DNA of 64,000 bases from Planctomycetota bacterium (lineage in GTDB: Bacteria; Planctomycetota; SZUA-567; H5-PLA8). The notes below the pieces were generated by a model that was not told the DNA's origin, searched no databases, and saw only the letters and a program-made list of their open reading frames with translations. The translations under genes were made by a program, and so were the position numbers. Where the stretch lies: contig DASXUX010000022.1 of NCBI GenBank assembly GCA_036504595.1, positions 18,104-82,103 of the forward strand. The letters run 5' to 3'. Shown one piece after another: positions 26,448 to 28,069 of the stretch. Each line of letters begins with the position of its first letter. Positions within the stretch are counted from its first letter, which is position 1.

Positions 26448-28069
26448 GTCCCCTGTTCCGCCCCAATCGCCGTCCTCAACAAGTCCTCTTCCGTCGCTTC
26501 GCCGCGCTTGAAGATCCGCCGCACTTCCCCGCGCACCAGCACGACGATGCGATGGCTCATCGCCAAAGCTTCAACGTAATCCGACGTGCACATCAGAATC
26601 CCCACGCCGGATTTCAGCAGCTCCGCCATGACATGATACACCTCCGCGCGCCCCTTGATGTCGATCCCGCGCGTCGGTTCATCGAAGAGCAGCACCTTGC
26701 AGCGCGCGCCCAGCCACTTCGCAATCACCACCTTCTGCTGATTCCCGCCCGAAAGCTGCCCCGCCGGCCAGTGAATCCCCGGCGCCTTGATCTGCAGCCG
26801 CTGCACATGCGCCGCGATTTCCGCATCGATCTCTCCGCCGCGCATCAAACCCCACGGGCTGAAGCGCCGGACGCTCGGCAGCGCGTAGTTGTCGCGCAGA
26901 CTATGCTCAAGCACCAAGCCTTCGCCTTTGCGATCTTCCGTGAGAAACCCAATCCCGCACGCAATCGCCGCCGCCGGATCGCCGCTCGGCACGCGCTGCC
27001 CGCAGACAGAAATCTCGCCGCCGCCGATCGCATCCACCCCCGCAATTGCCCGAGCCAGTTCTGTCTTCCCCGCTCCCATCAGCCCCGTGACCGCAACAAT
27101 CTCGCCCTTTCGCACGCTCAGTGAAATATCGTTAAGAATGCTGCCGCGCCGCACGTGCGAGACGCTCAACGCAGGAGCGGCGGGCGCCCCCGCCCGCCAC
27201 CCGGGCGAGGGCGCCCGGGGCTCCTTGTCGTCCGCCTGCGGTTCCGGCAGCGAGGGATACTGCTGCTTCATCTGCCCGCCAATCATCTTCGCGATCAGTT
27301 CGTCCAGCGTGACGTCCTTGATGTCGTACGTCCCAATGTTTCGCCCATCGCGCAGAATCGTCACGCGGTCGCCCAGCTCATACACTTCCTGATAGCGATG
27401 CGAAATGTAAACGAATCCGACCTGATGCTCCGTCTTCAGCCGCCGGATCACGCCGAACAATTCGTTGCGCGACTGGTCTTCGAGCACATCCGTCGGCTCA
27501 TCCATAACGATCACGCGCGGCGTATTGTGCCACGGGCAGCCTCTGTTAGCTGTTGGCTGCCCGTGCGGTTCGCCCTGCCCCGCAAGCGCCCGTGCAATCT
27601 CGACCATCTTGCACTGCGTCACGCTCAACTCGCTCACCAGCGTTCGCGGGTCGAGCGCGATATGCAGCCGCCGCAGCAGTTCTACCGCGCGTGAATACAG
27701 CTCGCTCTGATCAACGATTCCCAGGACCGGCCACAGGATCGGTTCCGCGCCGAGAAACATGTTCCGCGCGATGTCCAATTGCGGGACGAGATTCAGTTCC
27801 TGGTAAATGAACCGCACGCCCATTCGCAGCGGTTCCTGCGGCACGCCCGTCCGCACCGCTTGTCCCGCGATGAAAATGTTTCCGCTATCGAGCGGAAAGC
27901 ACCCGCTCAGCGCCTTGATCAGCGTGCTCTTCCCCGCGCCGTTTTCGCCGAGCAAGACATGCACTTCGCCCGGCCGCACGTCAAAATTCACGCCGTCCAG
28001 CGCCAACACGCCCGGAAAGCGCTTGGTGATCCCCTCCATGCGAATGACAGGCTCTGAAGTTGCCGGCAT
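26429..28069 (-). CDS. sugar ABC transporter ATP-binding protein with two ABC domains (RbsA/MglA-like) and a repeat-derived insertion
   Basis: Two Walker A (GENGAGKST, GLMGAGKTE) and LSGGNQQK signatures. A 15-aa insertion GEPHGQPTANRGCPW before the Walker B DEPT. Confidence 0.85.
   Translation of the reverse strand: MPATSEPVIRMEGITKRFPGVLALDGVNFDVRPGEVHVLLGENGAGKSTLIKALSGCFPLDSGNIFIAGQAVRTGVPQEPLRMGVRFIYQELNLVPQLDIARNMFLGAEPILWPVLGIVDQSELYSRAVELLRRLHIALDPRTLVSELSVTQCKMVEIARALAGQGEPHGQPTANRGCPWHNTPRVIVMDEPTDVLEDQSRNELFGVIRRLKTEHQVGFVYISHRYQEVYELGDRVTILRDGRNIGTYDIKDVTLDELIAKMIGGQMKQQYPSLPEPQADDKEPRAPSPGWRAGAPAAPALSVSHVRRGSILNDISLSVRKGEIVAVTGLMGAGKTELARAIAGVDAIGGGEISVCGQRVPSGDPAAAIACGIGFLTEDRKGEGLVLEHSLRDNYALPSVRRFSPWGLMRGGEIDAEIAAHVQRLQIKAPGIHWPAGQLSGGNQQKVVIAKWLGARCKVLLFDEPTRGIDIKGRAEVYHVMAELLKSGVGILMCTSDYVEALAMSHRIVVLVRGEVRRIFKRGEATEEDLLRTAIGAEQGTMMNAE
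27524..27568. repeat. family F palindromic element in frame in the ABC ATPase gene (encodes PHGQPTANRGCPWHN)
   Basis: attgtgccacgggcagcctctgttagctgttggctgcccgtgcgg. Stem CACGGGCAGCC / GGCTGCCCGTG. Confidence 0.85.

Follow-up and report, generated by a model that had tools for sequence, protein, structure and literature searches.

A probable REP-type hairpin element lying in frame within a sugar ABC ATPase gene of Planctomycetota

The window analysed here, a 64-kb stretch of DNA, contains a perfect palindrome that lies in frame within the gene for a sugar ABC ATPase. This palindrome (copy A) is very probably one copy of a REP-type (repetitive extragenic palindrome) family that was spread by a REP-associated tyrosine transposase (RAYT), and it appears to be carried by the enzyme as a tolerated passenger loop. 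Under the proposed explanation, the host of the family would be an uncultured Planctomycetota lineage, and a RAYT, which belongs with the HUH/Y1 transposases of IS200/IS605 type, would have spread it. Transposases of this type recognise a single-stranded DNA hairpin together with a short head and leave no target-site duplication. One copy would have landed, in minus orientation, in the part of the ATPase gene that encodes the first nucleotide-binding domain, at the short connector that runs from the helix after the signature motif to the Walker B strand. The 54 nt added are a multiple of three, and the frame used is stop-free and specifies a hydrophilic, Gly/Pro-rich peptide, so that the protein would stay open and gain a flexible surface loop, the insertion persisting as a tolerated passenger. 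A RAYT presumably carried out the copy A insertion itself. The features on which this explanation draws are collected in Table 1.

Table 1. Features of the window, by position, and copies of the 42-nt element in coding regions elsewhere, by locus
Feature	Position or locus	Strand	Description
Host gene, tandem-domain ABC ATPase, RbsA/MglA type	26429-28069	minus	546 aa, two ABC_tran domains
Copy A, 42-nt hairpin element (probably REP-type)	27525-27566	plus	40/42 positions as in family consensus; nhmmer E 4.8e-15
Copy A, left stem arm CACGGGCAGCC	27531-27541		perfect complement of 27555-27565
Copy A, right stem arm GGCTGCCCGTG	27555-27565		perfect complement of 27531-27541
18-codon surplus (54 nt), G166-T183, GEPHGQPTANRGCPWHNT	27521-27574	minus	alignment columns 190-207, without counterpart in homologues
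Second lineage-specific 18-aa insert, unrelated, KEPRAPSPGWRAGAPAAP	27170-27223	minus	linker between the two ABC domains of the host ATPase
Copy B of the 42-nt element, intergenic, upstream of gltX	20744-20786	plus	nhmmer, family profile, E 2.4e-11
GTAG-headed family of ~45 nt, GGTAGCGCCGGCCTCCGTGCCGGCAGGAAAGGACGCCGGC...	20050-20077, 29062-29106, 43819-43863, 56356-56400, 63638-63682		in frame in long ORFs
Palindromic family GTAGCGCAATCCTCCTGGATTGCG, GTAG-headed	30535-30570, 30849-30884, 33044-33079, 45139-45174		
Palindromic family TTCTCCCCTCCCCGC..GGGGAGG..GGGGGAGGGG	18871-18920, 22566-22615, 45221-45270		
c-di-AMP riboswitch RF00379	30679-30822	plus	81.8 bits; upstream of Band_7-domain ORF 30849-33047
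In-frame copy, PQQ propeller	L024		
In-frame copy, NPCBM/HZS_alpha protein	L046		1,103 aa
In-frame copy, alpha-L-arabinofuranosidase	L063		
In-frame copy, FGE-sulfatase domain	L063		
In-frame copy, LeuA-like synthase	L035		N-terminal region
In-frame copies, Ser/Thr kinases	L042, L073		linker
In-frame copy, Glu_synthase-like protein	L043		
Predicted signal-peptide copies at gene starts	L004, L003, L005, L015, L027, L040, L055, L059, L074		plus frame 2

The host gene and its hairpin

By its domains, its Walker motifs and its operon, the host gene encodes an RbsA/MglA-type ABC ATPase with tandem domains. Each half of the protein has a Walker A motif, a Walker B motif and an H-loop, the ORF is uninterrupted, and the gene stands first in an operon where it is followed by genes for a BPD_transp_2 permease and a Peripla_BP_4 sugar-binding protein, both of them intact. 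A Foldseek search with an AlphaFold model of the protein also returned fused tandem ABC ATPases. The exact gene was found on one contig only, and the 20 homologues that were aligned are 60-68% identical to it, the nearest being at 63-68%.

The original prediction placed a palindrome at 27524-27568, in frame within the first ABC domain, and the palindrome was located there. Copy A begins with the head TTGTG (27525-27529) and ends with a single tail nucleotide, C (27566), and between them an 11-bp perfect inverted repeat encloses a loop of 13 nt; in its plus orientation the element is antisense to the host gene. None of 100 shuffled sequences gave a match, even with three mismatches allowed, and the region is predicted to fold as RNA at -35.3 kcal/mol (z -3.4) on the plus strand and at -31.1 kcal/mol (z -3.1) on the minus strand, which is that of the mRNA. 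Translated on the minus strand, the 42-nt element corresponds to residues H169-N182 of the ATPase, HGQPTANRGCPWHN. The peptide first given for it, GEPHGQPTANRGCPW, comes from the same stretch but is shifted by three residues, and the insert precedes the Walker B strand but does not stand immediately before DEPT, as had been claimed, ending instead 7 residues before D190 of the Walker B motif.

An intrinsic terminator was considered as the identity of the hairpin and dropped: the terminator scan called no site at copy A and no T-run follows the hairpin on either strand, and thus the hairpin is not an intrinsic terminator. An Rfam search, covering the whole window and 300 nt around the element, returned no family for the hairpin.

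An insertion rather than an ancestral loop

Eighteen residues around the element are missing from every one of the 20 aligned homologues (60-68% identity), which argues for an insertion over an ancestral loop. In the homologues, ARAL is followed by two residues, two more, K or R, another two and V(L/M)DEPT; the host protein at the same site reads ARAL-AGQ-GEPHGQPTANRGCPWHNT-PR-VIVMDEPT. The alignment thus agrees with the claim that RbsA/MglA-type proteins normally have no insert here, no homologue having the segment as a conserved ancestral loop, and together with the 40/42 match to the family it supports the reading of a palindromic repeat lodged in frame in a conserved ABC ATPase. The first ABC_tran Pfam match of the protein ends at residue 164, just N-terminal of the insert.

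The placement of the 54-nt surplus is ambiguous by about 3 nt. The element accounts for H169-N182 only, and 12 of the 54 surplus nucleotides (EP before, TP after) fall outside it; these may be a subfamily tail, or may reflect earlier loop variation. A subfamily tail is suggested by copy B and L011, in which it is present in part (GGTTCGC / ATTCAGC). Because no empty-site orthologue of the host ATPase was found at >70% identity, the case for an 18-residue insertion combines distant homologues with the DNA match to the family. No repeat copy was found in the L002 locus, which encodes the closest relative of the ATPase, and that locus therefore does not supply an empty site in a lineage known to carry the repeat.

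Further inserts were noticed in these proteins. The second 18-aa insert of the host ATPase is encoded by DNA that forms two GC-rich hairpins, and a portion, GGAGCGGCGGGCGCCCCCGCCCGCC, is similar to a motif found repeatedly, in L026, L041 and L058. Two 8-aa inserts private to the closest homologue, P0002 (L002, GCA_936416955.1), are located elsewhere in the protein (about 7135-7165 and 8255-8300 of L002), where the DNA contains the small palindromes GGCTGAACtgcGTTCAGCC and GCGATGAGCGC...GCGCTCATCGC.

A dispersed family of 42-nt hairpins

The family is far larger than the two copies from which the original prediction started. A scan of public metagenome contigs with a 19-mer yielded 74 loci, and 83 distinct copies were extracted, from other metagenomes and from Planctomycetota genomes assembled from metagenomes. 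The consensus, GTGTGCCACGGGCAGCCTCTGTTTGCTGTTGGCTGCCCGTGC, is 42 nt long with sharp bounds: identity per column is mostly at least 90% within the block, falling to 50-80% at two loop positions and two end columns, and is 30-40% in the flanks, so that background is reached within one base on either side. The head motif consists of GTGTG, then C or G, then CACGGGC, with GTGTG conserved at 80-96% per position, and the 13-nt loop is unusually conserved across the family. In related subfamilies the top of the stem has changed on both arms together (CC/GG, G/C and CG/CG), so that pairing is kept, as judged from their sequences. Most copies are singletons and not inverted pairs, and no target-site duplication was found for any choice of element boundary, identity between flanking k-mers amounting to a few chance matches.

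Among the matches listed from a stem-only scan of reference genomes, at least two Planctomycetota genomes assembled from metagenomes carry the family, namely LacPavin_0920_SED3_MAG_65_12 and an uncultured Planctomycetia bin. Matches of that scan in Streptomyces, Bacteroides and others have different loops and no GTGTG head, and were set aside as chance or terminator hairpins. The window's own GltX has named close relatives that are all from Planctomycetota, at 68-76% identity.

In some cases the element is arranged tail-to-tail with a sister family, GTGTGGCACGGGCAGGTTCCGTTGCCTGCCCGTG, which gives REPIN-like pairs (L042 7749-7830, L043 and L016), and at L043 such a pair is translated inside the Glu_synthase-like protein.

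Association with RAYT genes

At L075, an ORF of 193 aa (3354-3935) lies between two perfect inverted copies of the element, at 3265-3306 and 3956-3997. Its product scores 24 bits against Pfam Y1_Tnp (cut-off 23), and among NCBIfam models it fits REP_Tyr_transpos best, with an E-value of 4.6e-19 and a score of 68.7 bits that is below the equivalog cut-off of 80. The protein has an HLH motif of the HUH type as well as the motif YIHNNP. Its homologues number about 1,950, many of them from Planctomycetota and some named REP-associated tyrosine transposase. Homologous RAYT genes were fetched from four further loci (L102, L103, L104 and L105), and each is bracketed by inverted hairpins that have the same head (GTGTG, C or G, CACGGGCAG) and the same stem base and differ in loop and length; at L105 there are two hairpin copies on each side of the gene. 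The L104 locus and the window were recovered from one metagenome, L104 on a different contig and maybe from another organism, and its flanking hairpin is a longer variant. Within the 64-kb window, tblastn detected no RAYT gene. Since the RAYT gene at L075 stands between inverted copies of the element and its four homologues stand between hairpins with the same head, the layout by which REP/RAYT systems are defined, the 42-nt family is, on sequence grounds, a family of REP elements with a putative cognate RAYT, which is known at L075 and not from the window's own genome.

Copy B and other repeats of the window

Searched with the family profile in nhmmer, the window contains copies A and B only. 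Copy B was earlier described as a near-identical intergenic twin at 20741-20786; it is real and noncoding, but the likeness does not extend throughout, the right arm having decayed. An exact stretch of 22 nt, TGTGCCACGGGCAGCCTCTGTT, is common to both copies (20745-20766 in copy B), and for a 19-mer within it the window has two occurrences where 0.03 would be expected. Copy B agrees with the consensus at 39/42 positions, and its right arm is interrupted by an extra nucleotide and has substitutions too, and its folding is no better than that of shuffled sequence.

Several other repeats were observed in the window. The intergenic region of copy B (20717-21139) holds a 22-mer resembling CTGTAAAAAAGTGCACATGTGT in four copies, spaced irregularly (108, 81 and 212 nt), and copy B begins 5 nt past the first of these. 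The GTAG-headed family of about 45 nt is in frame in five long ORFs, among them gltX and the gene for a RecD2-like helicase; the resulting insert in GltX, APAGTEAGATDGKAGT..., is 16 aa long and is missing in 12 orthologues at 55-76% identity. The two other palindromic families of Table 1 are mostly intergenic in the window.

Copies within other genes

Copies were called intragenic when the frame was open across the copy and third-position GC was coding-like on both sides, and candidates were confirmed by Pfam. Roughly a quarter to a third of the sampled copies are intragenic, a share that looks high. ORFs spanning the copies at the N-terminus of L019 and at L049, L068, L021 and L069 were regarded as antisense or junk translations and were excluded from this count. 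All of the internal in-frame copies so confirmed, like that of the window, are in minus orientation, in which the frames of the element read TGSQQQTEAARGT, ARAANSKQRLPVA and HGQPTANRGCPWH. In coding context the plus orientation is confined to some ten FGE-sulfatase paralogues, at whose N-termini frame 2 reads CATGSLCLLLAARA and contributes the hydrophobic core and AxA site of a predicted signal peptide. Two FGE-sulfatase paralogues that have no element (L015:874-1266 and L097:2577-2954) have ordinary signal peptides. At L040 a partial tandem duplication of the element was seen.

A more ambitious reading of these copies is that the RAYT-driven family has been shaped for life inside genes and is a recurrent source of new protein segments in Planctomycetota, recruited signal peptides in an expanded FGE-sulfatase family among them, and not merely tolerated junk. 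The reading draws on the length of the element, whose 42 nt equal 14 codons, on the hydrophilic character of the minus frames and on the hydrophobic plus frame with its AxA cleavage site, CATGSLCLLLAARA, and we consider it rather improbable. The consensus is also stop-free in all six frames; the chance of this is estimated at ~6% for 42 nt at this GC content, and the stop-free consensus is therefore only suggestive.

Consequences for the ATPase

In an AlphaFold model of the host ATPase (21-sequence alignment, mean pLDDT 77), the insert forms a disordered loop and the helix and strand that flank it are undisturbed. Residues 165-181 have pLDDT <50; on one side of them is the helix at 150-163, which follows the signature motif, and on the other the strand at 186-190, which is that of Walker B; residues 281-294, in the second insert, are below 50 too, and the remainder of both domains is folded. 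A sequence search of solved structures returned generic ABC domains only, with many alignments breaking at the insert, and did not place the loop. The connector that holds the insert lies at the end of the signature helix and, from what is general to ABC domains, would be far from the nucleotide site. The insert is probably tolerated, the ATPase would still be working and the loop would be neutral.

It could be argued that the insertion damaged the gene, which would then be a recently disabled pseudogene-in-waiting or encode a protein with a dead first nucleotide-binding site, its open frame reflecting nothing but recency. The hairpin still has 11 of 11 pairs and 40/42 consensus positions, so the insertion may be recent, and the same gene bears a second 18-aa insert. 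Damage is nevertheless unlikely, given a 546-codon frame that is intact, with no catalytic motif lost and 150+ positions that are invariant in the family preserved, intact permease and binding-protein genes downstream, an insertion site in a connector that is modelled as disordered with no effect on the neighbouring helix and strand, and many further in-frame copies in long intact genes.

Retention of the hairpin for some use, whether as a structure in the mRNA by which translation or decay in the operon is adjusted or as a loop with a role in the transporter, we judge to be very unlikely. The mRNA strand does form a strong hairpin (-31 kcal/mol, z -3.1), and the orientation bias of the convincing coding copies, with internal copies all in the minus orientation that gives hydrophilic peptides and the plus orientation serving only as a signal-peptide core, shows that selection acts on what is encoded. 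That bias, however, is explained equally by purifying selection against harmful insertions, and the host proteins are unrelated to one another, with copies sited in loops or linkers. At the hairpin in the ATPase gene there is neither a T-run nor a terminator call, the residues of the insert are modelled as disordered, and the insert is in no orthologue among the 20 homologues aligned.

That the segment is an ancestral or convergent loop of this subfamily of ATPases, or arose when reads were wrongly joined at the repeat during assembly, is hardly credible, for although the exact gene is known from a single contig and its nearest homologue is merely 63-68% identical, the residues are absent from 20/20 homologues, the DNA matches at 40/42 positions a repeat known from 80+ unrelated contexts, and on either side of the repeat one and the same gene runs on with its frame unchanged, which a chimeric join would not give. 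A REP-type insertion, tolerated as a passenger loop, is thus the reading that we prefer.

Comparison with known systems

Di Nocera et al. 2013 (PMC3733652) found REPs inside genes of several species, with the highest counts in Opitutus terrae and Rickettsia conorii; the proteins are typically longer by 20-30 residues, at places presumed to be loops. The same study reports REP families and RAYTs in Rhodopirellula baltica, REPs being known in the Planctomycetes-Verrucomicrobia group, and describes REP superfamilies that carry a GTAG or CGTC tetranucleotide tag (PMC3733652). Intragenic REP insertion is thus a phenomenon already described, met here in a new lineage and with a new head motif, and while it is fair to speak of an independent case of palindrome invasion, as the original prediction did, the case is not of a new kind (PMC3733652).

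The 42-nt family resembles the REP/RAYT system (REPtrons/REPINs; Opitutus terrae, Thauera and others; PMC3733652) in that its members are stem-loop palindromes, short and dispersed, with sharp bounds and a conserved 5' head; in having a transposase gene between inverted copies and no target-site duplication; and in that part of the copies are intragenic, with 14-30 extra residues in loops or linkers. It differs in its head, which is GTGTG-(C or G)-CACGGGC and not GTAG/CGTC and which therefore places it outside the GTAG and CGTC superfamilies of PMC3733652, and in having an unusually conserved 13-nt loop, copies that are mostly singletons, and a seemingly high intragenic share.

Bacterial MITEs such as Correia and Nezha are, like the 42-nt element, small non-autonomous repeats that lie in or beside genes. 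They differ in that their ends are inverted repeats of IS origin and in producing target-site duplications, whereas the partner of the 42-nt element is a Y1/HUH transposase; an identity as a MITE was rejected, as the lack of a target-site duplication for any boundary argues against it.

Rickettsia palindromic elements (RPE) share with the 42-nt family the presence of palindromic repeats in frame in conserved protein-coding genes, read as extra surface segments of host proteins that are apparently still functional. RPE-1 is ~100-150 bp long and restricted to Rickettsia, and no dedicated transposase is known for it. The 42-nt element, in contrast, has a RAYT and a Planctomycetota host, and its sequence is unrelated. 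Measured against RPE, which were reportedly described by Ogata et al. in 2000, it agrees in being inserted in frame in conserved genes and disagrees in consensus, length and Rickettsia host; it thus behaves as an RPE does without belonging to them.

Significance

As far as we found, the 42-nt family, its RAYT clade and their uncultured Planctomycetota hosts appear to be undescribed in the literature. The ABC ATPase provides a clean example of a selfish DNA hairpin translated inside an essential-type enzyme, and GltX and the RecD2-like helicase provide examples from another repeat family. Such inserts break domain models, as where the ABC_tran match of the ATPase ends on reaching the insert, and annotations and alignments may go astray because of them. 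Should the coding-compatible reading of the family be true, the 42-nt element would offer a tractable case of mobile DNA making new protein loops and signal peptides.
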